Under the pieces are notes generated by a model. The model saw only the letters and a program-made list of their open reading frames with translations, did not search any database and had not been told where the DNA came from. Both the position numbers and the translations under genes were made by a program. A stretch of 64,000 bases of DNA, taken from NCBI GenBank assembly GCA_964016885.1, contig OZ024742.1, forward strand, positions 156,364,001 through 156,428,000, read 5' to 3'. Numbering within the stretch: position 1 is the first letter of the stretch; each line of letters begins with the position of its first letter. Positions 11,105-61,240 of this stretch are shown one piece after another. This stretch comes from Eledone cirrhosa. Lineage: Eukaryota.

Positions 11105-13650
11105 CAAACCCACCAAGGTTTCTTGGTGAGGAGGCTGACTTTGGACATCATGCAGGACTAAACATGAAACCTGTTAAAGGGCAAAGGAACTCCTGGGAGC
11201 TCTTAAGAGCTCTTGGAGTCAATGGCCATCCAAATCCACCACGGCCCGCCGAAAGGCGCTGCAGTGCCGGAAAAGTCAACTTCCTGCTACTAGTATGCTG
11301 GTAAGCTAGTACAACGTATCTCCAGACGGATAGAATGGGTCCGTAGATTTGGTTAGCGACTACTCTAGTGCTTGCAACACGAACAATTATGGCGAGTGTA
11401 TAAATACCAGGTTGGTATCTGGCGCCGGGTAACCCACCACACGGAGGAGAAAGCACCTTCTTCAAGACTTGGCTGTCAAATTCTTTCAGATGTGTGTAGT
11501 AGTGGCGCCAACACACATTATTAGCTATTTGAAAAGATGATGGATTTCACAACTAACTGCACCAGGGTTCCTGTTCCTCAGGGAACCACACTATATGGTA
11601 TACCTGTTGATATAGGTCCAGCCCCTGCTTTCCCAGGTCCTGTTTCTGATCATAATGCACCTACAAAGGCATCGAATGATGATGAATCGTCAAATCTCAA
11701 GGGACGGGGTTCATATGATGGAGAAGAAACAGGTGCTAACCAAACAACAAGCAAATCTCGCTTAGTTAGCTGTTAAAAGCAAATAATAGTTAACTCCTTG
11801 AACACAAGATCCCTCCTTCCAACAGGTAGACGCCAGGAGCTGGCAGAGAATGCCAAACTTCAGAACATTGACATCCTTGCGGTCCAAGAACACCGCTTTT
11901 TCCACCCAAAGGATGATCTCAAGTATCACACCCTAGGACCCTACCAACTTGTCACCTCTTCAGCCACCAAGAACCCTGTCAATGCCTCCATCGGAAGAGT
12001 CGGCTGCCTTCTCTCATCTAAAGCCAGCAATAATCTTCTGGGGATTGAAACAATCTCTCCCAGAATCTTGGTGCTTACACTAGAGGGCAATCCTAGAACC
12101 ACTGCGATATGTGTATACAGTCCTCATAACGCCTCTCCTGAGGATGAGGTAAGATAATTCTACACGACCCTTCGCACAGTTGTTGAGCAAGTACCCTTAC
12201 ACAACTTTTTTATCATCGCTGGAGACCTCAACGCTCAACTTGGCCCGGATGAAGTAAAGTTCACATACAATAGGGTTACCAACCGAAACGGGGAATATCT
12301 CAAGGACTTCATGGAAGAATTCAGTCTATTCAGCTCAAACTACAGCTTCATGAAGACCAGAGGCCGGCTTTGGACCTTCGAATACCCAAATAAAAAACGA
12401 GCTCAGATTGACTATTTGATATTTCGCAAGAAATGGAGAAACTCAATCAAAGATTCTAGATCTTATTCCTTCTTTAGCTCTGTCGGCTCATATCATCGAG
12501 TCATCTCGGCAACAATCAAACTTAGCCTCAGGATATCCAAAAGGGCCGAACCTCATCCCATGAAAAGAATAGACTGGAAAGCCGTTTCTTCCAACAAACA
12601 ACTATCCAATAGCTTCACGCTTCAAGTCTATAACAGATTTCAATCTCTCTCAACTTCTGATATCAATGACGATAATATTGAAGATGTGTATGACTGTCTT
12701 AAGCAATCAACAGAGGAAGTTGCACTTGCTACCCTACCTAAAATGAAAACCGAAGCCAAATGAAACCTAGTGTCTCAGAGAGGGTAGTTGAGGCAAGGGC
12801 CCATCTTAGGTCAATATCCCAATCTCACCATCAATCACCATCTCAAGGGAAAAAGATACAGCTTATCATGGCCAAAAAATCACTAGACGACGCTTATCTT
12901 AATGCTGAAGCCGACTATATCTGAGGTAGGATTGATCAGCTATCGCAACATCACATCAGCAAACACCATCATCTTGCTTGGAAGGTTGTCAAAGATCTTT
13001 CAGGCAAAAACTCAAACTCTGCAGTTAGAATCAAGGGAGGCTCTGCAAAAAAACGTCTTGAAAATCGGTCTGCTCATTTTAAAACTATCTGCTCATTTTA
13101 TAACTATCAACTGCCATCCGTTCAGGTTTCAGAGCCTTTAGGAATCAACACCTCTCTTTTCACCATGCCTGAGCTCAAAGAAGCCATCAAAATGCTCAAA
13201 GCCTCATAAGCCTTTGGGCCGGATAATATACCTACCCTGATTTGGAAGGATGAGCTTTCCACATCCTTTTGCTCAACTTATGTAACCATAATTTCGAGAC
13301 CAATAAACCACCTAGCGTCTGGCATGCAGCTCAAATTATCCCCATGCCCAAAACAGGCATGGGGATAATTTGAGCTGCATGCCAGACTATAGAGGAATTT
13401 AGCCACCAACTATAGAGGAATTTCTCTCATGGCAATTGCTGCAAAAATATACAAGCTTCTTCTTAACCGCTTAATCCCATTTCTTGAGCCAATCCTTCGT
13501 AACAACCAGAATGGATTTAGGAGAGGTAGATCAACACTTAGCCAGATTCTCTGCCTTCGCCGACTTATAGAGGAGTCTCCAAACCGCAATCTAGACCTTG
13601 CACTCATCTTTGTTGATTTTTCAAAAGCCTTCGACTCAGTTGACAGGTCG
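11022..13650 (+). mobile_element. RTE-type LINE (5' UTR, AP endonuclease, N-terminal half of RT), frameshifted and 3'-truncated
   Basis: APE motifs NTRSL, DILAVQEHR, VYSPH, GDLNAQ, QIDYLI, SYHRV. RT motifs NYRGISLM, NQNGFRRGRST, FVDFSKAFDSVDR. Confidence 0.93.
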
Positions 13651-13651
13651 G

Positions 13652-14588
13652 GGATATATATATATATGTACGTATGGATTCACCGAAGATTTATTATACG
13701 AAATTTCATTTCTCATTATAAAATATGTTTGGTGAATCCATACGTACATATATATATGTGTGCATGTATGTATATATACATACATACTACTGTACTTCTG
13801 TATACATATAGGTATGTACATATACATACTTATATTTCAGTAACAGCCGTACTAAGACTGAGAAATGAAATTTCGTTTCATTTTTTTCCGTTTATCGTTT
13901 TCGGTACCCCGGCCGATTAACTCCCTCGATATGCAAACTAGGCTGCTCAGCCGTTAATATGCATAAGGAAAGTATATACTTTCAGACGTTCAACCATCTG
14001 GCAGGAAGGTACACGTTGCTGACGATAGCTGATAAGCTTGAAACTAGTACATCGTTCCTTTGTCAGTGTTGAACAAATGAGCTACGATGGTTGCTAGACA
14101 CTGTACGGCTTAAGTCGGGATGTTTGTTTACAAACACACCGAGCATTACAATAAATGTTCGGTGAATCCATACCTAGATATATATATGTGTGTGCATCTA
14201 TGTATATATATATACATACTACTGTATGTCTCTATACATATATGTATGTAGGTATACATACATATATTTAAGTAACAGCCGTACTAAGAGTGAGATATTA
14301 AATTTCGTTTCATTTTTTCCGTTTATCGTTTTCGGTACTCCGGCCGATTAACTCACTCGATATGCAGATTAGGCTGCTCAGCCGTTCATATGCATAAGGA
14401 AAGTATATACTTTCAAACTTTCAAGCATCTGGTAGGAAGGTACACGTTGCTGACGATAGCTAATAAGCTTGAAACAAGTCAGTGTTGAACAATGAGCAAC
14501 GATGGTTGCTAGACACTGTACGGCTTAATTCGGGATGTTTGTTTACAAACACACCGAGCATTATAGTAAATGTTCGCTGAATCCATAC

Positions 14589-14649
<61 letters not shown>

Positions 14650-14650
14650 C

Positions 14651-14700
<50 letters not shown>

Positions 14701-14757
14701 ACATACTACTATACGTCTGTATACATATATGTATGTACGTATACATACTATATACAT
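13652..14757 (+). mobile_element. Tandem ~432-bp non-coding repeat with hammerhead (retrozyme-like family B), about 2 units
   Basis: TAACAGCCGTACTAAG at 13841 and 14273. HHR ACGTTG-CTGACGA-TAGC..GCTT-GAAA-CTAG-TA-CATCGT at 14013-14055. Confidence 0.88.
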
Positions 14758-19759: not shown

Positions 19760-22700
19760 ATGTTATATATATGTATGAGATGAAACAATGGTATTTAACG
19801 AATGCAATGGTACGCGATGGGGCCCTCCCACAGCCCCGGCGGACAGAATGGAGAAGGCGTTTCCCCGGAGGACGGCAAGAGAGACGCGCTGGAAAAGCCA
19901 CTCCAACTCGTGAGGCTCACACCTACGGCTGGTCAACTCAGCGCCTATGGTGGTGAGTAAGGAGGTAGCCCTGGGGCCGAGGACACCAGAAGTTTCCACT
20001 GACAGAGTAACGACCGCAAACCTGTCGGAGAGCGACCGGTATTTGAGGAGTTTGGCCCCCTCAGCCCGACGTGCAGCAGAACCTGGATCAGTCGCAGACT
20101 GCACCAGGTTGCGGCTGCAGACAGTGTCGGTGCAAGTGACATCCCAGACGTTCGCCACCGCGGAACGGGAAGATGGTCATGCCATCTGGCCTTTTGCCGT
20201 CCCCTCGATCCAGCCCCACCGGCTCGAGCTGGGAAGGGAAGCCTGCAGCGTCCAAGCCACGCTTAATGACCTCGTTGGGGGCAGTATGGCGTGGAATGCG
20301 GCCGGCACTGTGGCGACAGGAAAGCGGGTGGAGGCAGAAAGAGTCGACGGTGGAACCGCAGCGACATTGGTGTGGCTGGCAGATCCGGAGGCCGAGCCTC
20401 AGGGAAACGACGATTCGCAGGCTATGGTTGTCTAGCTGCGTGCCAGTAGAGAAGGAGGGCAGAGCATGGAGCCAGGCACCACTGTGGTGTTTGGACGCCG
20501 CACGAAAACAAACAAGGCGGTACTGGTCGAGCTGGCGTGTGAGCCTGTCTGAGGCCAGGTTGCACTGGATGGCATCCCAAGTGCGTTGGGAGAATTGACA
20601 TCAACAGAGGGAGAAGGAGGAGTTGCGTCTACTAGGCTAAGTTCCAGTCGGTCCCACGTCTCACAGACGGCCTCATGTTCTCTGAACACAGAGGGTTCTG
20701 TTGTGTTTTGAAGAACCCTGCTGACGAGAACGCGGCACGAGGTTACCGACGCAAGATACGCCGGCAAAGTTAGTGAGATCGGGGACCGGAGGCCTAGGCC
20801 GCCATACCTGAGAGCTACAGTAGCCTGTTGCTACCCTATGTCGTCAAACTTGACGTTGCATATCACCTCGACTGCTGCTCGGATAGAAGTATCGACGTCA
20901 GCAGAAAGAGAGCTGGGTGGCCGTCATTCAAGCCCAGTCGCCTAGTATGAGTCTGGAGCTGTTGAAGCCTGGACCTGATGGTGGCGCGGACGGCCGGCGG
21001 GTGGATCGGTGACCCGAGGATGAGGACATCCTCTTTGGGGGTCACCTGAACCTGGCGGAGAATGGACCGCACGTCCAAGATGGAGGCTGCAAAGCTCACA
21101 GCATCGAGGCTGACGTTCACCACCTCCAACTTGGCCGAGTTGACCTAGAGGACGATTCCCGCCAGAGCAGGAATCACCGATTGAAGGTCTTTTCGGACCG
21201 TCCGTACGGTCCCGCCCAACGTAGAATCATCCAGATACCAAACGTTCAGAGGGGCCGTGATACTCGGGCCGATGTGGTCAATACCAAGGGCGAACAGTAG
21301 GGGTCCCAAAGGGTCGCCCTGTTGAACCCCAGTAGCCGAGGGTATGACCCTATCAGGAGCTAGGAGCATGCTCGGGGCTCCATATGACAGGTAGGCCAGC
21401 GTGTAGGCAGAGAGGGCTCGGCTGAAGCAGGCCTCGAGCAGATGATCCCGGCGTAAAGAGTTAAAGGCATTCCTCATGTCAAGCTTGACAATGAGGTGCC
21501 TGGAGTCCCTGGATGCCGGTACCGATGGGCAGCTGCTTAAGAACTGCCTGATTGCATGAGAGGCTCCCTCACAGCCACCGGACACGCCGACACCCAGTTG
21601 CACCGGACTAAACTTCTCACCCAGTTCATGTGTGGCGGACTTGCAGATCACCTTGGCAGCCAGCCTCCGGAAGACATTGCCCACAGCAATGGGGCGTATG
21701 CCACCCTCTTTCTTCATGAGAGCGGTGAGGCTGGCCGAAAAAAAGAAGTCTCGAGCGTAAGAGTCGAGGGCACCATGAATGAGCCCATTGGTGAGCCCCA
21801 CAATGCATTCAGAAGGCGGCGCCCGGCCTCAGTGGAGAGGGGGTATGTCAACTCCTTGAGGTAGCCTGGTCGGAGACCATCAACACCTCCGCAGCTGCTA
21901 GCTGGGAAGGACCTGATGGCGGACATGATATATGCATCAGTAGCCACAAGGAGCAGGTGGGGTCGGGTGGGGGTATGGGTCTGAGATCAGGGCGTTGCTC
22001 AGGGTGTTTGAGCCGCAGAGCAGCCAGGATTTCTTCGGTGGGTTGGAGGACAGTGTCCTCTGAGGCAACAACTCTGACTGCGGCCAAGACATCACCCATG
22101 ATAAGCTTTACGTTTACCTGGTCTCGGGATGGAGGATAGGGGGTACCTGAGGGTGGGTGTGTGGGGTCCCTGGGCACGCTTGGAACGGGCGCTCGACCAA
22201 ATGACGAGACATTGGCCTTGACGAAGGCTGCTGCTGACCTGCAGCCCCGGACAGCGCCAGAGCTGGGGAGGCCGAGGGCGAGTGGGCCGCAATGGAACAG
22301 CCGCTCCCAGTCACTGGCTCGATTGGAATCCAGGACGCTCTTAATCGAGGAAGCGAGGGCATCGGCCACCGGCGGCCGTGCCGCTCTCGGGATCCTGAGT
22401 GGGATCTTCCGGAGCCGCCTGAGCCGAGCGATGTTGACCAGCGAGGCTCGGGCGTCAGGCAAGATCGCTGTCCCACCTGGTGGTGTGCCAGAGGGCCGTG
22501 GCTGGGAAGACCTGGGGAAGAGGCAGCTCCTGCACCTCCATGCTGCGAGGGCATTGGAGGCTCGACGAGTCAAGCCAATGCAGGTGAGGTGGTGGTAGCA
22601 GCCGCACCCCAAACAGTTCCGGCCCCTCTTCCATTTGTTAGTAGTGACGCATGTGCTGCAGGTGTCGATTTGGAGGGGTGGGGGATGGGGTGTGGGGCCG

Positions 22701-27904: not shown

Positions 27905-28393
27905 TTATATATGTAGGAGGTGAGTTTTATTGTAGTACATTAAAGCAATGCAGATATCGGATAAGAAGCACTCTACAGTTTGTAGGACTGGAGTATACAT
28001 AATATATAAGATCAAAAGATGGTTAAAGGAGTTCCATGTATTTTATTAGGCGCATTTCAAAAACAAACATCATCATGCAATAATATTTGCGTTTTCATCA
28101 GATAAAACAGGAGGACATGATATGAAGGCTAAACAACACTTGGGGATAGTGCAGTTTTAAACACAAGTTTTTGTTAGCCTTCATATCATGTCCTCCTGTT
28201 TTATCTGATGAAAACACAAATATTATTGCATGATGATGTTTGTTTTCGAAATGCGCATAATAAAATACACGGAACTCCTTTAACCATCTTTTGATCTTAT
28301 ATATTATGTATACTCCAGTCCTACAAACTGTAGAGTGCTTCTTATCCGATATCTGCATTGCTTTATTGTACTACAATAAAACTCACCTCCTAC

Positions 28394-32125: not shown

Positions 32126-32140
32126 ATATATATATATATA

Positions 32141-32249
32141 AACGGAGAAAATAAAACGAAATTTCATTTCTCAATCTTAGTACGGCTGTTACTTAAATAT
32201 AAGTATGTATACGTACATACATATTTGTATACAGACGTACAGTAGCATG

Positions 32250-32329
<80 letters not shown>

Positions 32330-32372
32330 CATACATGCACACTTATTTATATGTACGTATGGATTCACCGAA
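32141..32372 (-). mobile_element. Partial family B unit abutting the truncated 3' end of a PLE
   Basis: Reverse complement of the family B GGTGAATCCATACG...TAACAGCCGTACTAAG segment. Confidence 0.85.
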
Positions 32373-35281
32373 CGACGTCCTCCCGTGTAAGAGTTGGCTC
32401 TGGACACTAAGCTCCAAGTGAGATCATAGGTAATATTGTAATCCTTGAGGTCCCTGATGAGGCCCGAAAGTGTTGTGGCGTGACGCCGGGCCGGGTTGCG
32501 GAAGGTATGTCTGTGTTGCTATAGCCGTGTCTTGAAGTCGCATGCGGTTAATCCTATATAATCTTTGTTGGAGCTGTCCGTCCTCACGTTGCACTAGTAG
32601 ATCACGTTACGATATCTGCATCTGTTGTCGAGGGGCCAAATGGATCCATCAGGGCAGTTGCACCTCCTGGTCGGCTCTCCACTGCTATTTAGGTTATTTC
32701 TTCCATAGGGGGTTGAGTTTATTGTTGTTAGAGGAGACGATGTATTGTGCAAAGTTTGGTGTGGTTCTGTAGGATAGTTTCGTGGTATTTTTGTTAATTA
32801 TGTTGTGGTAGCGGTGTTGTAGTGGGAAGTGTTTTTCGATGAGCCTAAAGAAGATTTTCCCAATAGGAGTTGTCACCTCGGCGTTGAGGGGCGGATTGAA
32901 CCATATTACATTACGTGAGCGGCAGTGTCGCCTGCTGGCTCCGCTAATGGAAGCTGGACAGTAGGATATTTCCTCCCGGAAACCACTCCGCTTGAGGGCC
33001 TGGTTGTAATAAGGCGCATGTTCCTCGAATATCTTCTCATTAGCGGACAAACGAGATATGCGGAGGGAGATGTTTTTAACCAGGTTATTGGTGATGTTCC
33101 TAGGATGGTTTGACCTGCGGTGGATGTAGTGCAGATTGTCGTTGGGTTTCCTGTATGGGTAGTACAGATCATTATCGAGGTCAAGATTAACGTCCAGCAA
33201 GTTTACTCGGGTCAGGGACGTTTGTAGGGTTATTTTAAATCCCCAGTCGCGGAATAAGCTGATTAATTGTTTACGGTCTCGTTCTGTACTACTGAGGTTG
33301 TACCCTTTAAGGGTAAGGAGCCCATCATCTCGGTATAATCCACCGCCGAATGCAGGAAATGTATCGGTGTGTTTAACTAGTAGGAATAATCCTATAAGAT
33401 ATGTGACCTCAGCCGAATCCTTCGCGCCCATGCTGACTTCGAAGGGTGAGTCGGGAGCTCTTTTTATCCATTTGGAGTTGTCGAAGAGTAGGACTGTGTT
33501 CCTGGCGTGGAGGATGATGTTTCTTTCCTGGTCGGTGATGGGCGCAAGTGTTTCGGCAAATTCCAAGGCAGCCGTAAGTAGCGGTAAGGTAATTGTAGCA
33601 TGTCAAACTGGATGAATGTTGTGTCTCGTTTGTCCTCCATATTGCTGAACCATGAGATTACTTCCTGGGTGTTGACCCATAGGCTAAGTCTGGCGTGTTG
33701 CTTAACTTTTGGTATAACGCGGTCCAGGATTTTTTTGCTGTTTCTCCCTATGTCAGACTTCGTTGGGTTTATAAGCCTGATAGAAGGTTTACGGTAGAAA
33801 TCGTATTTGTGGTCCTTCAGTGTGAAGTAGGGTGTCCGTGGGTCTAAGGGTTCCGTACGGTCGGCGACCCCGAGGCAGGAGGTAATTTGTTGTCCATCTC
33901 GATTTATGTCCTCGATGCAGGAGTGGTTAGCCTTTTTATAGGTGGAGTTTAGGCTGCTCCTGATAAGTGTGTGGTATCTGTCGGGGTTGACGAAATAGAG
34001 GTTACCAGTTTTATCCGAGTGCTCCATGATGTCATTGGTGTTATCATACTTTGTTAAGTTGCTAATGTTCTTGACCAGTTGGAAAAGGTCATTCTCGAAG
34101 GATGAGAGAATAGGGTTCGGAGGGGGAGATTTGTAGGTATTAAATCCGAATCTCTCCTTAGTACCGATTGTCGAAATATATGTCGTAGAAAAAAGTGCTC
34201 CATCTATGTCTTTTCGCAAAGAGGTCGATTTTTTGCGTGAGCATCCGAAGGTAAAGTTTTTTCGGTGGAATTGGGTTGTTCTTGGTGGAGAAGTCGATGT
34301 TGTGTTTTCGCATGGTGCGGGTGAAATAACTTGTGCTTAGCGGAAAAGTCTGGATAGGGCGTGGTAGGGTCGTAAAGTGCTCTATTACGGGAATAGGAGC
34401 TAGATAACGAAGGAAATATGGTAAGGAACCAGATGGACCATAACGCACCAACGTACTCAATACTTAGGATAGTAGAGTGGGTAATAGGAACGAGTAGGAC
34501 CCCGACGGCTGAGCTCAAGCCGTTTCGACGGCTAATTCTGGACTAAATGAAAATGTTTATCGTCGTATATGAATAGCCGAGCTTCTCAGGGGGTAATTCC
34601 TTATATGGTAAAAGTGATTGTCACAAGGATTGGTCAAAAGTTTGTTGTTGAGACACATAATACTATCATGGCAATTTGTGGAGGGAAGGGGTAGCTGAAC
34701 CTGCCAGTAGAAGAACGGTGGAGAGGGGGTGGAGGAAACCTAGTCGTGCGTTGATAGTGCCAACTACAGCAGGGCAAGAGGTCAAGGAACTGTACTAGAG
34801 AGGGGGAGGAAGTCGAAACAATAAGTAAAACAATATGGGGTAAATATATAGAAGAATACCGAGAATGTTAAAAAACAATTAAATATTTAAAAAAAAAAAA
34901 TTTCTGGTTACTATTCCCTAACGGCAGCCATCAAGTCTCTCACTGCTACTGCTAGACTATAGAGAGTTGACTAGGTGGGACGGAATTATAATGAGACCCT
35001 TCTAAGAGGTAGTAGTAATCAACCGAGTATATCTTACGGTGACGGGTCACCAAGTGGGGGCGCCAAAATACTAAAGAAACTACCACGAAAAAATAAATCA
35101 GAGTCTCGAGACTAATACGAAATAATTTTGACCAAGCCTTGTGACAATCACTTTTATCATATATGGAATTAACCCCTGGGAAGCTGGGCTATTCATATAC
35201 CAGGATAAAAATATTCATTTAGTCCAGAATTAGCCGTCGAAACGGCTTGAGCTCAGCCGTCGGGTTCCTACTCGTTCCTAT
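32373..35281 (-). mobile_element. Naiad-like PLE, frameshifted (coding ~32375-34320), with 5' pLTR ~34483-34640 and inverted copy ~35126-35281
   Basis: YFTLKDHK..F.RKPSIRLINPTKSDIG, FIQFD, PFEVSMGAKDSAEV, GGLYRDDGLL, YRKPND, VIWFNPP, RCNC...VIY...DYIG. Confidence 0.94.
34500..34593 (-). ncRNA. Hammerhead motif in pLTR (C3/A8 mismatch in this copy)
   Basis: CCCC-CTGAGAA-..CGGCTATTC...GAATTAGCCG..-GAAA-CGGCT-TGAGCTC-AGCCG-TC-GGGG. Inverted, more mutated copy at 35173-35264. Confidence 0.78.
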
Positions 35282-35297
35282 ATATATATATAAATAT

Positions 35298-35715
35298 ATA
35301 TACATACTAGTGTACGTCTGTATACATATATGTATGTACGTATACATACTTATATTTAAGTAACAGCCGTACTAAGAGTGAGAAATGAAATTTCGTTTCA
35401 TTTTTTCCGTTTATCGTTTTCGGTACCCTGGGCGATTAACTCACTCGATATGCAAATTAGGCTGCTCAGCCGTTAATATGCATAAGGAAAGTATATACAT
35501 TCAGACGTTCAACCATCTGGCAGGAAGGTATACGTTGCTGACGATAGCTAATACGCTGGTAACTAGCACAGCGTTCCTTTGTCAGTGTTGAACAAATGAG
35601 CAACGATGGTTGTTAGACACTGTACGGCTTAATTCGGGATGTTGGTTTGCAAAAACACCGAGCATTATAATAAATGTTCGGTGAATCCATACGTACATGT
35701 ATATATATGTGTGCA

Positions 35716-35771
<56 letters not shown>

Positions 35772-36156
35772 CTACAGTACGTCTGTATACATATATGTAT
35801 GTTCGTATACATACGTGTAGTTAAGTAACAGCCGTACTAAGATTTAGAAATGAAATTTCGTTTCATTTTTTCCGTTTATCGTTTACGGTACCCCGGCCGA
35901 TTAACTCATTTGATATGCAAATTAGGCTGGTCAGCCGTTAATATGCATAAGGAAAGTATATACTTTCAGACGTTCAACCATCTGTCTGGAAGGTATGCGT
36001 TGCTAACGATAGCTAATAAGCTTGAAACTAGAACAGCGTTCATTTGTCAGTGTTGAACAAATGAGGAACGATGGTTGCTAGACACTGTTCGGCTTAATCC
36101 GGGTTGTTTGTTTACAAACACACCGAGCATTATAATAAATGTTCGTAAATCCATAC

Positions 36157-36193
<37 letters not shown>

Positions 36194-36197
36194 CATG

Positions 36198-36233
<36 letters not shown>

Positions 36234-36747
36234 CTACTGTACGTCTGTATACATATATGAATGTACGTATACATACGTATATTTAAGTAAAAGCCTTACT
36301 AACAGTGGCAAATGAAATTTCGTTTCATTTTTTTCCGTTTATCGTTTTCGGTACCCCGGCCGATTAACTCACTCGATATGCATATTAGGCTGCTCAGCCG
36401 TTAATATGCATAAGGAAAGTATATACTTTCAGACGTTCAACCATCTGGCAGGAAGGTATAAGTTGCTGACGATAGCTAATAAGCTTGAAACTAGTGCAGC
36501 ATTCCTTTGTCAGTGTTGAACAAATGAGCAACGATGGTTGCTAGACACTGTACGGCTTAATTCGGGATGTTTGTTTACAAACACACCGAGCATTATAATA
36601 AATGTTCGGTGAATTCATACGTACATATACATATATATGTGTGCATGTATGTATATATATATATACATGCTACTGTACGTCTGTATACATATATACATCT
36701 ACGTATACATCCTTATATTTAAGTAACAGCCGTACTAAGAGTGAGAA
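35298..36747 (+). mobile_element. Family B tandem array, about 3 units (465/462/436 bp), hammerheads each point-mutated
   Basis: Unit marker at 35361, 35826, 36288 and 36724. Cores near 35538 (GTAA for GAAA), 36003 (CTAACGA) and 36466 (GTG triplet). Confidence 0.9.
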
Positions 36748-38297
<1,550 letters not shown>

Positions 38298-47650: not shown

Positions 47651-47700
47651 AGTATGTATGTATACATACATACATATATGTATACAGACGTACAGTAGCA

Positions 47701-47742
<42 letters not shown>

Positions 47743-48145
47743 TATACATACAGGTACACATATATATATGTACGTATCAGTTTAGCGAACGTTTATTATA
47801 ACGCCCGCTTTGTCCGTTTGTAAACAAGCGAACAGCCTGATTTATGCCATACGATGTTAAGGCAACCACGTCACCTTTTTGTTCAACACTGACACAGGAA
47901 CGATGTACTAGTTTCAAGCTTGTGAGCTATCATCAGCACCGTATACCCTTCTGCCAGATAGTTGAACGTTCGAAAGTATACACTTTCCTTATGAAAATTA
48001 ACGGCTGAGCAGCCTAATTTGCATATCGAGTGAGTTCAGTCGGCCAGGCGTACCGACAACGATAAGTTGTAATATAATGAAACGAAATTTCATTTCTCAC
48101 TCTTAGTACGGCACTTACTTAAATGTAAGTATGTATGTATACGTA
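47648..48145 (-). mobile_element. Diverged family B unit with intact hammerhead at 47900-47942
   Basis: Minus strand reads ACGGTG-CTGATGA-TAGC-TCACAA-GCTT-GAAA-CTAG-TA-CATCGT. Confidence 0.9.
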
Positions 48146-49898: not shown

Positions 49899-50607
49899 TA
49901 AAAGGGGTTTGATTGGTGTTATGGACTCTACCAACCAAATATTCAAGAACAAAGAGTAAAGAGAGTAAAGAGCAAAAGCAGGGGACAATAAGTCTAATTT
50001 TTTTTTTTGGGGGGGGGGTCCTTGTTTACAAGCTGTGGTCATATTCGTTCCCGGGAGTCGAGCGGTTAGTGGAGCCATAGATGGGGTGGCATCGAAAGTA
50101 GGGTGCAGAGCACAAAGCACAGACACGATAGGTATTCCTTTGACCAGACCATGAGAAGTAGTAAAACCAGGAGATCATTCTCAAGATCTCAACAGAGACT
50201 ACCAACAAGGAATGTGGAAACAAAACGTAGAATAACCAGATCACTCTCAAGATCTCAACAGAGATTGCCCACAAGAAACTGGACGAAAAAACGATCTAAA
50301 CCTGAAAGCAAACCTAGGTCATTTTCCCAGATTGTTAAAAATAATGCTAACAGGAAGAAAAATAATATACAGAATACCAAAAATAGGACAAAATACATAA
50401 CGAAACCAAATATAATATCACGACCAAAAGTTCATCAACGAACACCAACAGGAATATAAATCCTGAACAGAGAAAATTTCATTTTTTAACGTCAGGACAA
50501 CAAAAACCGGAAACAGAAAAACTCCAGGAGGAAACATACCCAAAACAGCTGTACACGTAGATCCTAAAATAATTAATTTATCTAAAAGAGATCTTGACAA
50601 TGATGAA

Positions 50608-52797
50608 ATGCAAATTCTGTCAAAAGGACTGAAATTCACACCGACTCCAACAATCAACCACCAAGAACTGAAGGAGGATACCCAAGAATTCTGTCGAAAA
50701 TTACGTCTTGTAGAATTCTTCGCTGATAAAAATAATGAGAGTGATGAATCACTAGTAAAGAATCAATCAAATTTCACTCCGCCAAAAGGAAGAAATATCT
50801 ATCTCGACCAATACATTGACATCCTGTCTAAATTTCCTCTTAGACATAATACTAATGTTAGGCCAAACATTAACAAATCAGAAATATTTGCACTTAAACG
50901 TATACAAAATGATAAAACAATAATAATTAAACAAGCAGATAAAGGGGGTGCAGTTGTTATAATGGATACTGAATACTACAAGGATTTGGTTGAGGAACAA
51001 CTGAAAGACACAACATTCTATCATGAAATACCGTCAAATATAGACCACAACATCATGAAGAAGATCAACAACCTGGCTTCAAAATACCACAACTCATTTA
51101 CTGATAAGGAAAGAGACTACATCACCAATTCTGAGCCGAAACCCAGCAACCTGTATGGCCTACCGAAAGTTCACAAGTCAAAAGAAATACAACTGGCAGT
51201 AAGAGAACAAAACAGTGAGTACATTAAATTATTACACCCAAAAGACTTAAAACTTAGACCTATTATAGCTGGTCCAACACGCCCCACTCACCGTCTAAGC
51301 AATTTTGTTGACATTATTTTGAAACCACTATGTATTCACATACCCAGTTTCATCCGGGATGATATCGACTTCCTGTCCCATCTTCCCAAAACCACGGAAA
51401 CGAATTCACTTCTACTCAGTTTTGATGTGGTAAGCCTTTACACCAACATTACACATGATTTAGGAATAAAGGCGGTTAAATACTGGATGGAAAAACACAG
51501 AGAAGTGATTCCCATTAGATTCACAGCGCCATTTATATTAGACGCAGTTAAACTTATTCTGGAAAACAACACTTTCTTCTTCAATGGAAAGAATTACATC
51601 CAAATTAGAGGCACAGCGATGGGAACGAAGTTTGCTCCCGTTTACGCGAACTCTGTAATGGGATACTTAGAACAACAACTCTACCAAGAAATAGAGGAAA
51701 ACTATAGTACTGACTTTAGAAAGTACATTGAAAAATCTTGGAAGAGATACCTTGACGAATGTTTCATCATCTGGACAGAATCTCTAGATACTCTGGATGA
51801 GTTCAATATCCTCCTGAATAACCTACACCCATCTCTCCAATTCACAAAAGAGATGAGTAGGACCAAATTACCATTCCTAGATATAATGATAATCAAAAAC
51901 GACATCACCATTACCACGGATATATATTATAAACACACAGACACCCATCAATATCTGAATTTTAAGTCGTGCCATCCACCTCATACAAAACGCAACATCC
52001 CATACTGCCTAGCCAGAATAATTTGTACCATTGTAGAAGATACGAATACCAGGTACAAACGCCTAACAGAACTAAGAGAATTTTTGCTCAAACAAAAATA
52101 CCCATCTCTACTTATAGAAAATGGCATACAGCGGGCTATAAAAATACCTATACAACAACTTAGAACAACCCACGGAAGAAGAAACCAAGAACTGGTCATA
52201 CCATTTATAATGACACACAACCCATGTCACCATAATATATTCAACACTGCCAAAGCAAACCTACCGATCATTGCTCAAAGTAATGAATTAAAAGGAGGCT
52301 TAATCACAGATCGATCTTTGACTCTTAGTAAAAGACAGCCAAAAAAGTTGAAGCAATTGCTAACAAAAGCAAAGTTTGACCTTAACAACAAAGACCAATC
52401 ATTCACTGTATCTAAATGCAATGATAATCGATGCGGCACATGTCAATCCATAAACGCCGGTCAATATATGAAAACAAAAACTGGAAAAATATTCCCAAAT
52501 GCAAATATGAACTGCAAAAGCAGAAATCTAATTTACTGCATTAAATGCCCGAATTGTGAAGAACTATATGTCGGTCAAACTGGAAATGCACTATCGGAAC
52601 GTGCACGGGTACACTGTCAACAAATAAGAGACCCAAATGTCCGTCAGATACCCCTAAGCGGCCACCTGGCAACATGTGGTCAGGGAATATTAAAAATATT
52701 CCCATTCTACAAATTACACAGCCCAAGTGAAATCAAGAGACAAATCAAAGAAAAGAATTTTATTGATGAATTCAAACCCAAGCTAAATGAACAATAA
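50608..52797 (+). CDS. PLE reverse transcriptase + GIY-YIG endonuclease (729 aa, uninterrupted; YLDE instead of YLDD)
   Basis: LSKGLKFTP, IKQADKGG, LYGLPKVHK, RPIIAG, FDVVSLYTNI, GTAMGT..AP.YAN, RYLDE, LPFLD, CNDNRCGTC, LIYCIKC...LYVGQT. Confidence 0.95.
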   Translation: MQILSKGLKFTPTPTINHQELKEDTQEFCRKLRLVEFFADKNNESDESLVKNQSNFTPPKGRNIYLDQYIDILSKFPLRHNTNVRPNINKSEIFALKRIQNDKTIIIKQADKGGAVVIMDTEYYKDLVEEQLKDTTFYHEIPSNIDHNIMKKINNLASKYHNSFTDKERDYITNSEPKPSNLYGLPKVHKSKEIQLAVREQNSEYIKLLHPKDLKLRPIIAGPTRPTHRLSNFVDIILKPLCIHIPSFIRDDIDFLSHLPKTTETNSLLLSFDVVSLYTNITHDLGIKAVKYWMEKHREVIPIRFTAPFILDAVKLILENNTFFFNGKNYIQIRGTAMGTKFAPVYANSVMGYLEQQLYQEIEENYSTDFRKYIEKSWKRYLDECFIIWTESLDTLDEFNILLNNLHPSLQFTKEMSRTKLPFLDIMIIKNDITITTDIYYKHTDTHQYLNFKSCHPPHTKRNIPYCLARIICTIVEDTNTRYKRLTELREFLLKQKYPSLLIENGIQRAIKIPIQQLRTTHGRRNQELVIPFIMTHNPCHHNIFNTAKANLPIIAQSNELKGGLITDRSLTLSKRQPKKLKQLLTKAKFDLNNKDQSFTVSKCNDNRCGTCQSINAGQYMKTKTGKIFPNANMNCKSRNLIYCIKCPNCEELYVGQTGNALSERARVHCQQIRDPNVRQIPLSGHLATCGQGILKIFPFYKLHSPSEIKRQIKEKNFIDEFKPKLNEQ

Positions 52798-53171
52798 TAA
52801 CGCCTAGGGGTATTACTTCTACTACCACTATGACTACGACCACTAACAACAACAAAAACAACAATAATAATAATAATAAAAGTGATGTTGATGGTGATGA
52901 TTAATAGAAAATGCTATTTTCATCATTTCAAAAAGCAAAACAATTGATACGTTGGGTATGACTATTGGTCGTTAGCATGCTCAACCAGCCGTGACGCTTA
53001 AACCAATCAGCTGTAGTAATTCAGTGAAACTACACACTGATTGGTCGAAATACAGTTTACAGGGCTTTGCATTCTGGAGCCACTTTTCTCTGTATAAAAT
53101 GTATAAAAGGTAGGAAATTTACCCATCTCATTACAGTTGAAAATTGCAAACTCGACTGTCACCACATATCA

Positions 53172-53210
53172 TGAACCTGAAGATTGCGAAAGCATGAACG
53201 TACTTGTTCA
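53172..53210 (+). ncRNA. Minimal hammerhead motif in 3' pLTR, one core substitution
   Basis: TGAAC-CTGAAGA-T-TGC-GAAA-GCA-T-GAAC-GTAC-TT-GTTCA. GAAC in place of GAAA; helix I is perfect. Confidence 0.72.
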
Positions 53211-53324
53211 ATTAACACTTAGAATTTAATATTCTATCATACTATTTCATTATAATACCATTATATATATTTTAAAGGATTGTAAATAAAACGAGTAAAT
53301 CAGACAAAGTTTGAATTCCTCTTA

Positions 53325-53396
<72 letters not shown>

Positions 53397-57315: not shown

Positions 57316-57349
<34 letters not shown>

Positions 57350-57352
<3 letters not shown>

Positions 57353-57770
57353 GGAAAAAATGAAACGAAATTTCATTTCCCACTCTTAGTACGGTTGTTA
57401 CTTAAATATAAGTATCGTTTTCGGTGCACCCGGCCGATTAACCCACTCGATATGCAAATTGGGCTACTCAGCCGTTAATATGCATAAGGTAAGTATATAC
57501 GTTCAACTATCTGGCAGGAAGGTATACGTTGCTGACGATAGCTAATAAGCTTGAAACTAGTACAGCGTTCCTTTGTCAGTGTTGAACAAACGAGCAACGA
57601 TGGTTGCTAGACACTACGGCTTAATACGGAATGTTTGTTTACAAACACACCGAGCATTATAATAAATATTGGGTGAATCCATACGTACATATGTATAGGT
57701 GTGCATGTATGTATATATATATACATAGTACTGTACGTCTGTATACATATATGTATGTACGTGTACATAC
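57350..57770 (+). mobile_element. Family B unit with inverted 5' segment and intact hammerhead at 57526-57568
   Basis: ACGTTG-CTGACGA-TAGC-TAATAA-GCTT-GAAA-CTAG-TA-CAGCGT. 57350-57413 is family B sequence in reverse. Confidence 0.9.
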
Positions 57771-57792
57771 TTTTATATATATATATATATAT

Positions 57793-58469: not shown

Positions 58470-61240
58470 TTACATATTTAGTTTGGGTTTGAATTTGTTA
58501 ATAAATAGTTTTTCCTTATTTATTCTTTGTTGTTGAGGGAATGAATCGGAGCACTTGTAAAGGGGGAAGATTTTAAAATGGGGTAGATGTGTTATTGCAC
58601 AATCTGTAATATGGCTACTTAAGGGGATTTTCCTTGTGTTTACGTCTCGGATTTGTTGTCGATGGTTGGTCATTATTTTGCGTAATGGCACCCTCGTATG
58701 TCATACATAGTTATGTCGACAGCCACCGCATGTGATTACATAGATCAGGTTCTCCGAGTTGTAAGTGAAGTTGTTTTTAACTGTGAAAGTTTGGCCGTCT
58801 TTAAACGTGAATTTATGTCCTTCAGTTAAGTATAGGCATGTTCCACAGTTTGTTTTTCCGCATTTTGTTACCGTAAGGCTGGACATAAGTTTGTGTATTT
58901 TTGTTGCAGTGCGAATGTGTGTTAGTGATTTTAGTTGCCTTTTGCTTTTGATGCTCTTGTGTGTATCTAGCATTTTTTTCATTTTTTCATCTTTAAATAT
59001 AATGGGGAGGTTTCTGTGTAGGAGGTAAAACATTTCGGTGTTTCTGGGATTGAACGTGGATACATATGGTAAGGTATTGTTTGTGGACTGTACTTTGGGT
59101 TGTTGGGTTGATGTAAATTTGCGTGTTTTGCTTTGTCTATTCCGTTATTATTATCAAGTGGGAAGGCTCTTAATGTAAGTGTGTTTTTTTAGTTCATTTA
59201 GTCTTTGTTCCCGTTTGGCTGGGTCTGATACTATGGTGCATATACGTTTGGCCAAATTAAAAGGAATGTTAAGTTGTGTATGTTTTGGGTGATTTGATGT
59301 GAATAGGAGGTACTGTTTGGAGTCCGTGGGTTTATAGAAAATGTCTGTTTCTATTTTCCCATCTGTTTTTAGAATGAGAATATGTGTGAATTGTATATTA
59401 TTGTTAATGTTGTTAAACATATTTTTGAAAAGAATGAGTGTATTCATGTCTTCCTGCCATAGTATGAAGCAATCATCTAGGTATCTCTTCCAATTATTTT
59501 TGAGATGTGTAAGGAAACAGTTTCCGAATAATAGAAGGGATTAGTTGTAGATTTGTTGTTCGTGGAATCCCATGACAAAGTTGGCGTATGTGGGGGCTAC
59601 CTTTGTGAACATTGCAGTCCCTGATATTTGTCGGTATGCTGAGTCATTGAAAGTAAAGGATTTATTCTGTAAGATAAATCGGAGTCCATCAATAATGAAG
59701 TTTTTCTGGATGTGTGTTGGTATTTCAGATTGGTGAGTGTCTGGCCAAAACTGGATTGCTGTTATTCCATAATTATGGGGTTTGTTAGTGTTGAGTTTTA
59801 CTACGTCAAAGGAGACAAGAATAATGTTTTCACTTACTGTTTGGGGTAGGTGGTTCGGCATATCAAGGTAATCCCTTATGTAGTTCTGAATATGTTTTAG
59901 TAGGGGCTTTAGTAGGATGTCCAGGAAGTTTCTAAGTCTGTGGGTTTCACATGCAGGGCCTGCTATAATTGGTCTGAGTTTTAAGTCTTCTGGTGATGTT
60001 AATTATATGTATTTGTTAGGCGAAGTGTCACGTGCATTGCTTATGAGTTTACATTTATGTATCTTCGGTAAGCCGTAGAAAGCACTTGTATTATATTTGG
60101 TAAGCCGTAGAAAGCACTTGTATTATATTTGAAATGGCGGTGGATTGGCAGTATCGGTAGAGGGTCAGACACCATGCTTTCCAGCATAGTTACGTCCCTT
60201 TACGATCTGAGTTCAAATCCCGCCGAGGTTGACTTTGCCTTTCATCCTTACGAGGTCGATACAATAAAGTACCAGTAATGCACTGGGATAATTGATGGCC
60301 TTGTGCCAAAAGTAGAAACAATTATATTTGAAATGGCTTATGTATTCAAATTATTTTGTGGTTAGGCTACTTCGGTATTTTTGTAGTAATGCTAGGAGGT
60401 TCCCCATTGTTTTAGTTTGTCTGGAGTTTACTGTTTTTCCGTAGTACTTATTCTGAGATTTTGAGTGCCAGGTCTCTATAGTAGTCAGTGTCCATACTGA
60501 CTACAGTGCTCCCTTTATCGGCTTCTTTGATGGTTATTTCAGTGTTGTTTCGCAGTGTGAATAATTCTTACCATTCGTGTTTGGAGAGGTTCGATTTCGT
60601 GTGTCTTTGTAATTTGTTCATAGGGAAAGTTGATGGTGCTTTCACAGTAGGTGTCCAGTGTTGTGTTCCACCCTTTATGTGGGCAGAATTCACTTTTGTT
60701 TCTGACTATTGATTCGTCTTCAGTGTTGGTGTCATTGGAGAAGTATTCTATTAGTCTGAGTGTTCGGCAGAATTCCATGATGTCATCTTTCATTTCCGGG
60801 AAGTTAAATTTTTTGTGTGGGTGTAAATTACAGTCTCTAACTTGAAAGGTTAATTATCTTCGCCTCTTCATGAGTGGGGGCCATCGGATGTCCTGGTATT
60901 TCAGTCTTGTTCCTAAAAAGGGAATATTGTTTTGGTTGTAACTATAGTCTGCTTGTCTGTTTTGTATGGGTCTGTAGTTTGTTTTTTCATGAGAGTTAAT
61001 GTGGTGATGAGAGTGCTGTCTGTTGTAGTTTTTATTGTGTAAGGGTTCTGTTATGGGTTTATGTGGTCTGGGTGTGTTCCTTCTGGGATGCATAGTGTTG
61101 ATGTTGTGGGGGTTTGATTTTGTAGTGTTGGGGGTGATAACTGTTGTAGTTGTTAATGTGGAAAGGTTTTGCTGGGATTTCCTGTGGTCTGTGTGGGTTT
61201 CTTCTGGGGTGTTTATATATACATTTGTGTGCATGTGCCT
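58470..61240 (-). mobile_element. Neptune-like PLE, degenerate, interrupted by a SINE
   Basis: FCRTLRLIEYF, FDVVKLNTN, GTAMFTKVAPTYAN, WKRYLDD, FYKPTDSKQYL, CGKTNCGTC, LIYVITC, FINKFKPKLN; collinear with the 50608 ORF. Confidence 0.93.
60139..60320 (+). mobile_element. SINE nested in PLE, 17-bp target-site duplication
   Basis: ATTATATTTGAAATGGC at 60122-60138 and 60321-60337. Confidence 0.93.

Follow-up and report, generated by a model that had tools for sequence, protein, structure and literature searches.

Family B in the Window

The focal locus of the window (the whole 64-kb stretch of DNA analysed) harbors a short array of a dispersed, non-coding tandem repeat, hereafter family B, preceded by a rearranged inverted piece of the same repeat and inserted next to a fragment of a LINE-type reverse transcriptase (RT). 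In a preliminary description of this DNA, family B was placed at five loci with seven copies of a hammerhead ribozyme (HHR). All five loci are present, at 13.66-14.75k, 32.14-32.37k, 35.28-36.75k, 47.65-48.14k (minus strand) and 57.35-57.78k (Table 1). The seven hammerhead copies, starting at 14013, 14444, 35532, 35997, 36460 and 57526 on the plus strand and at 47942 on the minus strand, exist as well, but the core is intact only in three of them (14013, 47942 and 57526). Both copies singled out earlier as the best preserved (47900-47942 and 57526-57568) belong to this intact group, whereas the copies at 35532 and 35997 carry changes in the core and that at 36460 has a G at the cut site.

Tandem pairs of intact hammerheads are absent from all five window loci. 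Arrays of the kind that characterizes non-LTR retrozymes were found elsewhere in the genome (L002, L029 and L278) and at none of the loci in the window. At the focal locus, the second ribozyme (14444) has no cut site; hence, this locus cannot release a unit-length RNA. It is a decayed family B copy abutting a truncated LINE RT fragment. A second LINE-type RT fragment lies at 21148-21828 on the minus strand, and the end of another short repeat family, whose copies end in a TA repeat too, directly precedes the B1 array (window ~35230-35279).

Table 1. Family B and associated features in the window (unit positions are counted from the predicted cut).
Feature	Position	Strand	Remarks
LINE-type reverse transcriptase fragment	13393..13650	+	RVT_1 E 1.4e-9; stops at the insertion edge; target, outside the element
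Rearranged short inverted arm, 5' side of the focal insertion	13658..13713	-	Unit positions 96-136 plus a piece of ~245-260
Focal arm, 2.5 B1 units	13714..14754	+	From unit position 93 to the short 3' site (217), followed by a short TA run
Hammerhead copy 1	14013..14055	+	Core intact, one U.U mismatch in helix I; predicted cut after 14049
Hammerhead copy 2	14444..14480	+	Cut site and 3' strand of helix I deleted; helix I extension without fold
5'-truncated arm without ribozyme	32138..32373	-	Ends at the long 3' site (277) in a TA repeat
B1 array, period 465	35280..36750	+	Hammerheads 35532, 35997 and 36460 all damaged; 3' end at unit position 250
B2 arm	47653..48135	-	Intact hammerhead 47900-47942, predicted cut between 47906 and 47905; short 3' site in a TA repeat
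Coding Penelope-like element (PLE)	50467..53329	+	776-aa open frame (50467-52797), RT and C-terminal GIY-YIG; short 3' end in a TA repeat
pLTR hammerhead of the coding PLE	~53172-53210	+	pLTR non-homologous to family B
Inverted arm, partner of 57413..57779	57347..57415	-	Ends at the long 3' site (277) in a TA repeat
B1 arm	57413..57779	+	Intact hammerhead 57526-57568, predicted cut after 57562; short 3' site (221) in a TA repeat
Octamer word	57452		In the B1 arm 57413..57779

Extent and Subfamilies of Family B

The TRF periods of the family B arrays in the window, 431 and 465, agree with the repeat size of ~430-465 bp given previously; the natural units, measured from cut to cut, comprise ~424 bases in subfamily B1 and ~463 bases in subfamily B2 (overall range 424-463 bases). 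The tandem units are non-coding, low in GC and carry one type I HHR each. This is also the build of the non-LTR retrozyme unit, i.e., 150-450 bp with one type I HHR and no LTR, PBS or PPT, B2 with its ~463 bases being slightly longer.

A genome-wide pattern search revealed 5,653 occurrences of the exact 34-nt core of family B (genome G000), and the pattern of the core-intact hammerhead was found in 25,988 copies in the 3.0-Gb genome. Since the reversed-pattern controls returned 0 matches in both cases, family B copies occur far beyond chance. Five family B copies were present in a random sample of 590 kb, which corresponds to ~25,000 copies genome-wide (95% range 8,000-59,000), with family B making up about 0.5% of the sampled DNA. 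The window contains three core-intact copies versus 0.6 expected.

In the unit alignment, B1 and B2 are alike in 368 of 469 columns (~78%). The B2 copy at 47.9k shares 98-99% identity with many other copies in the genome, and B2 is therefore young; overall, B1 and B2 are two young subfamilies of family B. The apparent 70%-identical old relatives of the family turned out to be microsatellite artefacts and were discarded.

Several loci outside the window show particular arrangements. An array of ~50 family B units at L183-L185 (G000:C1:51.772-51.794 Mb) is a possible source locus. At L276 (G000:C1:19616700-19626699), there are two different two-armed insertions, each duplicated with identical junctions. 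L182 (G000:C1:49582000-49591999) harbors a 10-unit arm of alternating 420- and 422-bp units, where adjacent units are 97.0% and units two apart 99.6% identical; this arm, with long/short ends (see below), is compatible with a two-unit circular template or with a later DNA duplication. Low-depth contigs in runs X5 and X6, labelled as two other organisms, match family B, and one of these contigs carries the inversion junction seen at window position 57415, which could stem from prey, contamination or a shared sequence.

The Hammerhead Ribozyme

The three intact window copies and the 25,988 genome copies possess the catalytic boxes of a type I hammerhead, a UH cut site and three helices, of which helix I is the open one. 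Folding yielded a helix I of 6 bp followed by a 3-nt bulge and an extension to 23 pairs, and a helix III consisting of a single pair that closes a palindromic tetraloop. Helix II comprises 4 bp, with a U.U mismatch at its base and a tetraloop at its end; this fold replaces the helix II and loop II drawn initially. The fold z-scores range from -2.1 to -2.6 for the three intact copies and amount to -0.9 for the deleted copy at 14444.

The monomer is predicted to fold with the helix III palindrome base-paired to the beginning of the core; imposing the active fold raises the energy by 8-9 kcal/mol above the MFE. Between two copies, the same palindrome is predicted to form a 6-bp duplex (-4.8 kcal/mol). 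Since the active fold of the monomer is costly while the duplex forms between copies, dimer cleavage is predicted, and the ribozyme probably operates in this way; the folding energies thus side with the earlier suggestion that helix III needs a dimer.

The label “minimal”, used at first for this hammerhead, had to be dropped. Minimal motifs are defined by the absence of helix III and loop 3 (Cervera 2014, PMC4209133), whereas family B possesses a palindromic loop 3 along with the 4-bp helix II on U.U and the 6-bp helix I with its long bulged extension; the long helix II, short helix I and G-C pair at the helix II base of minimal motifs are likewise lacking. Canonical motifs are described as having a 6-bp helix I, a 4-bp helix II and a helix III of 1-2 bp with a palindromic loop (PMC4209133). 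By these definitions, the predicted family B ribozyme is of the canonical-layout metazoan type I.

The Rfam search returned no hammerhead match at the gathering threshold in the window. The HH9 match at 47.9k is weak (13.9 bits versus 52 for gathering, E 0.83), and at 57.5k no hammerhead match was obtained from Rfam; in the weak HH9 alignment, the helix I bulge after 6 bp and the 6-nt A-rich loop, candidate elements for a loop 1-loop 2 tertiary contact, are placed as in HH9.

B1 and B2 agree in each of the 12 core bases; their four differences within the 43-nt motif affect N7, loop II and both partners of one helix I pair. The helix I swap reported for the copy at 47.9k is real, but it is a trait of the whole young subfamily B2 (98-99% identical copies) rather than of one copy. 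Among 12 aligned copies, one helix I pair occurs as G-U, U-G and A-U. The pairing of helix cells amounts to 97.8%, a value reached in 2 of 500 shuffles; covariation was recorded at two pairs, which is not significant by pair count (230/500 shuffles). The conservation of the ribozyme relative to the rest of the unit is borderline (39/43 versus 329/426, p 0.05). At the same time, the retention of the core in two diverged young subfamilies, with a compensating change in helix I, needs selection on the RNA.

Upstream of the ribozyme, 70 of 74 units contain an octamer word, located within a predicted hairpin at a distance of 110-120 nt from the cut. Newt satellite 2 is known to have an internal snRNA-type promoter (PMC2220036), whereas in family B the octamer/TATA-like block is possibly an internal promoter, i.e., only a candidate for this role.

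Anatomy of the Insertions

The arm ends were surveyed at C1 loci chosen only by the exact core, most of them from the first 52 Mb of C1. The loci L183-L185, arms below 76% identity or touching the locus edge, the duplicates L197, L209 and L219, and two repeated L276 insertions were dropped before the counts. In this set, 73 of 89 arms end at unit positions 214-226 or 264-280, namely 35 at ~221 and 38 at ~277, and the next 16 bases passed the TA-repeat test in 60 of these 73 arms. The two 3' sites are ~56-61 bases apart, with a tail of 61 nt in B2, where the end classes were assigned by range because of the unit-length differences. The 5' starts are flat (9, 14, 13, 5, 11, 11, 12 and 14 per 53-bp bin), and no shared upstream breakpoint was found among family B loci.

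Many insertions consist of two arms joined head to head, often with an overlap of a few bases; a clean example with one long and one short end is the 57.4k locus of the window. Outside the end-biased set, 64 head-to-head pairs were recorded, with both ends classed in 49 and one end unclassed in 15. One long and one short end were found in 45 of the 49 classed pairs (p 4e-10 versus 0.5), the remainder comprising one long-long and three short-short pairs; this count excludes the end-biased B1 top set (11 long-short, one short-short, one long-long and four with an unclassed end). The long/short pairing holds in B1, in B2 and in all three random pairs. Neither arm is consistently longer, the short-end arm being the longer one in 32 of 56 pairs. 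The uncoupled arm starts and the absence of nesting led to the rejection of classical L1 twin priming and fold-back.

Fixed internal 3' starts, an optional tail, an inverted 5' arm, 5' truncation and an AT-rich target are the hallmarks of a PLE-type insertion, and family B displays all of them. It is very likely that family B has been mobilised by PLE machinery. The long/short pairing suggests that PLE priming of both DNA ends is coupled in vivo.

The Coding PLE and the Search for a Parent Element

The protein of the coding PLE in the window, with its RT and C-terminal GIY-YIG, has named relatives that include those of bivalves. This PLE family, with a unit of 4,211 bp, is represented by many near-identical copies with open frames. 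Its hammerhead combines, like that of family B, the U.U mismatch with a one-pair palindromic helix III; it has two 3' ends ~60 nt apart in a TA repeat, and the long/short pairing is found in all 11 insertions with both ends read. The coding PLE exemplifies the machinery that likely moved family B, of which it is at most a candidate partner. At two of the 11 loci, L224 and L226 (G000:C1:21874917-21879916; C7:65817668-65822667), both arms start at or within a few bases of the element's own hammerhead cut, a hint that the RNA of the coding PLE was self-cleaved in vivo.

The preliminary description had left it to be checked whether family B is attached to a PLE. A sense PLE ORF directly upstream was found at 0 of 147 loci, which supports the independence of family B from a PLE ORF; eight loci do have PLE matches nearby, oriented tail to tail or head to head with family B or lying downstream of it. 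Family B has no counterpart in the pLTR of the 4.2-kb coding PLE, and no PLE with a family B-homologous pLTR was encountered in 30 loci of further PLE families or among PLE fragments within the sampled loci. Thus, neither of the marks expected of a pLTR of a coding PLE, a sense RT-GIY-YIG ORF or pLTR homology, was detected in the PLE families sampled. With a relaxed hammerhead pattern, 21 matches were obtained, 12 of which resemble mutated family B; the other nine have no PLE ORF or family B homology nearby.

An apparent chimera with a PLE at L026 was set aside: the PLE copy is decayed and probably represents the target. A further PLE family (L146, L167, L177 and L188) is often located in the same TA repeats as family B; it carries a hammerhead of its own, and its two 3' ends are separated by roughly 60 nt.

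Circular or Linear Template

A 5' end lies within 3 nt of the cut site at one of 97 places, and 71 of 162 paired arms are longer than one unit. In young arms (L002, L278, L282 and L262), the units are 99.6-100% identical. Subfamily alleles are common to both arms at 1038 of 1118 sites (92.8%), versus 74.9% for shuffled partners (maximum 80.7%), and locus-private substitutions are common to both arms in only 12 of 173 cases; the sharing of alleles could instead reflect co-active subfamilies or gene conversion. Because the cut is read through, many arms exceed one unit, the units in young arms are nearly identical and the alleles are shared, a circle is the simplest explanation. A circular RNA template for family B is considered fairly likely.

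On the sense strand of B1, an excess of A>G was recorded among recurrent variants (107 versus 59; 13/86 A sites versus 2/88 T sites, p 0.003). The excess is gone among rare variants (49 versus 53), and there is none in B2 (20 versus 22). A-to-I scars in B1 are weakly suggested.

Proposed Mechanism and Alternative Explanations

Overall, family B appears to be a non-autonomous non-LTR retrozyme mobilised by PLEs in trans, probably from an RNA circle, a reading that we hold with a probability of about 0.6. The original retrozyme call stands, since the sequence tests revealed non-coding tandem units with one type I HHR each. Tandem copies of family B would be transcribed, possibly from the internal octamer/TATA-like block. 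Two neighbouring ribozymes would pair via the helix III palindrome and cut, the lone monomer being inactive according to the folding prediction, and the monomer would be ligated into a circle by analogy with the retrozymes of coral, mussel and axolotl. A PLE protein, the putative enzyme behind the observed footprint, would nick both strands of a TA repeat and prime both DNA ends on the RNA at ~221 and ~277. From there, each cDNA would extend backwards by a random length, passing the cut site and frequently exceeding one unit, before head-to-head joining of the two, as is suggested by the arrangement seen in the insertions. Two reported observations count against this reading: HHR cleavage was unnecessary for insertion by the anole PLE in vitro (PMC11167929), and eight of nine Xenopus retrozyme dimers were without cleavage.

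The same PLE machinery could instead have copied an uncleaved linear read-through transcript of long arrays, with a slow or irrelevant ribozyme and without any circle. Arrays of ~50 units exist (L183-L185), so long linear transcripts could also give multi-unit arms; uncleaved RNA likewise predicts no pile-up of 5' ends at the cut site, and the anole PLE used mainly unprocessed RNA in vitro (PMC11167929). The ribozyme itself joins two weak features, the U.U at the base of helix II and the one-pair helix III. An irrelevant ribozyme is, however, difficult to reconcile with the intact core of B1 and B2, which are young and diverged, and with the compensating change in helix I. The near-identity of the units in young arms is expected from rounds on one circle, although a homogeneous source array would match it too. 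Taken together, a linear template seems unlikely but deserves serious consideration.

Far less probable is the explanation of the copies as 5'-truncated pLTR fragments of an unsampled coding PLE, the family being an amplified pLTR. It agrees with the PLE-type ends, with the U.U base and one-pair palindromic helix III common to the window PLE, with the match of 24 of 57 Xenopus retrozyme families to known TEs, nearly all of them PLE termini, and with the presence in the genome of many PLE families, few of which were sampled. Yet upstream of each unit there is another unit rather than an ORF (0/147 loci), a common upstream breakpoint is lacking, and neither the pLTR of the 4.2-kb PLE nor the 30 loci of other PLEs resemble family B; a pLTR origin in the distant past is conceivable. 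It is scarcely credible that family B spread at the DNA level in the manner of a satellite or a Helitron-like repeat, its inverted arms arising by fold-back repair and its ribozyme being a fossil, despite the duplications in some arrays (the repeated insertions at L276, the two-unit period at L182). Fold-back predicts that the short-end arm lies inside the long-end arm, at odds with the 32 of 56 pairs where it is the longer one, and the fixed 3' and random 5' ends together with the pairing rule of the coding PLE point to target-primed reverse transcription.

A more specific form of the circle-based reading, offered tentatively and at somewhat less than even odds, is that an asymmetric PLE dimer primes both TA-repeat ends on one circular retrozyme RNA at sites ~56-61 nt apart, with two RTs running round the circle. 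If true, the genome would have recorded directly, in the long/short pairing, in the reading through the cut site and in the alleles shared by both arms, how a ribozyme circle undergoes rolling-circle retrotransposition, a process proposed and not demonstrated in the retrozyme papers cited. The same two-site, one-per-arm end rule is obeyed, within a single genome, by a retrozyme without coding capacity and by a young coding PLE. For the existing in vitro assay, this rule pinpoints where priming should occur (unit positions ~221 and ~277) and names a candidate class of enzyme.

Comparison with Known Systems

The metazoan non-LTR retrozymes (Cervera and de la Pena 2020, PMC7229834; Li, Clavereau and Pollet 2026, 10.64898/2026.07.22.740005) resemble family B in their few-hundred-base non-coding tandem units with one type I hammerhead each, low GC, occurrence as dispersed monomers to long multimers, and the presence of PLEs in the same genome. 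Circular RNA has been demonstrated for these retrozymes, whereas for family B the circle is only proposed. Target-site duplications, where present, are longer than 4 bp in non-LTR retrozymes; the TA repeats at the ends of family B would obscure them. That animal retrozymes return to DNA by PLE enzymes acting on RNA circles is a proposal of PMC7229834, for which 10.64898/2026.07.22.740005 argues on the basis of distribution and pLTR homology; this link rests on co-occurrence and pLTR homology, whereas that of family B comes from the insertion ends, with no pLTR homology found. A term search of the available part of the preprint 10.64898/2026.07.22.740005 returned neither “tail” nor “target site”. 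The literature search found no description of a cephalopod or octopus retrozyme, with the proviso that unseen supplements may list such families or end structures. As far as its sequence tells, family B is a family new to the metazoan non-LTR retrozymes, the element class itself being already known.

Of the axolotl ribozymes, HHR_Amex1 has the one-pair helix III with a palindromic tetraloop and HHR_Amex2 the U.U mismatch at the helix II base, and both cleave much better as dimers (PMC7229834); family B unites the weak helix III of the former and the U.U of the latter in one ribozyme. Its units are longer (424-463 versus 330-350 in the axolotl and newt systems).

Head-to-head inverted arms, an optional 3' tail at one end, microsatellite targets, 5' truncation and a hammerhead near the 3' end are shared by family B and GIY-YIG PLEs (PMC11167929, PMC8557442, PMC3846280, PMC4209133). 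Family B differs in having no ORF and a tail of 56-61 nt versus 30-40. The “tail” at one end of inverted copies is a described mark of PLEs (PMC3846280, PMC8557442), and the anole PLE protein extended both strands in vitro, with two internal RT start sites bounding the tail (PMC11167929). The PLE literature cited states the pairing only qualitatively, whereas in family B a near-strict long/short pairing has been counted. The in vitro work reports no strand difference in the start site (PMC11167929), in contrast to the one-per-arm rule of family B.

Other Elements in the Window

A second PLE, broken and 43% identical to P0001, is located at 58476-60820 on the minus strand, its 3' side abutting the TA repeat at 57.8k; no canonical hammerhead was found in the scanned 3' region of its relatives. 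A head-to-head pair of a different hammerhead-like motif with a long helix II occupies 28055-28101 (minus strand) and 28205-28251 (plus strand), and similar copies of this motif are present in L033 and L069.
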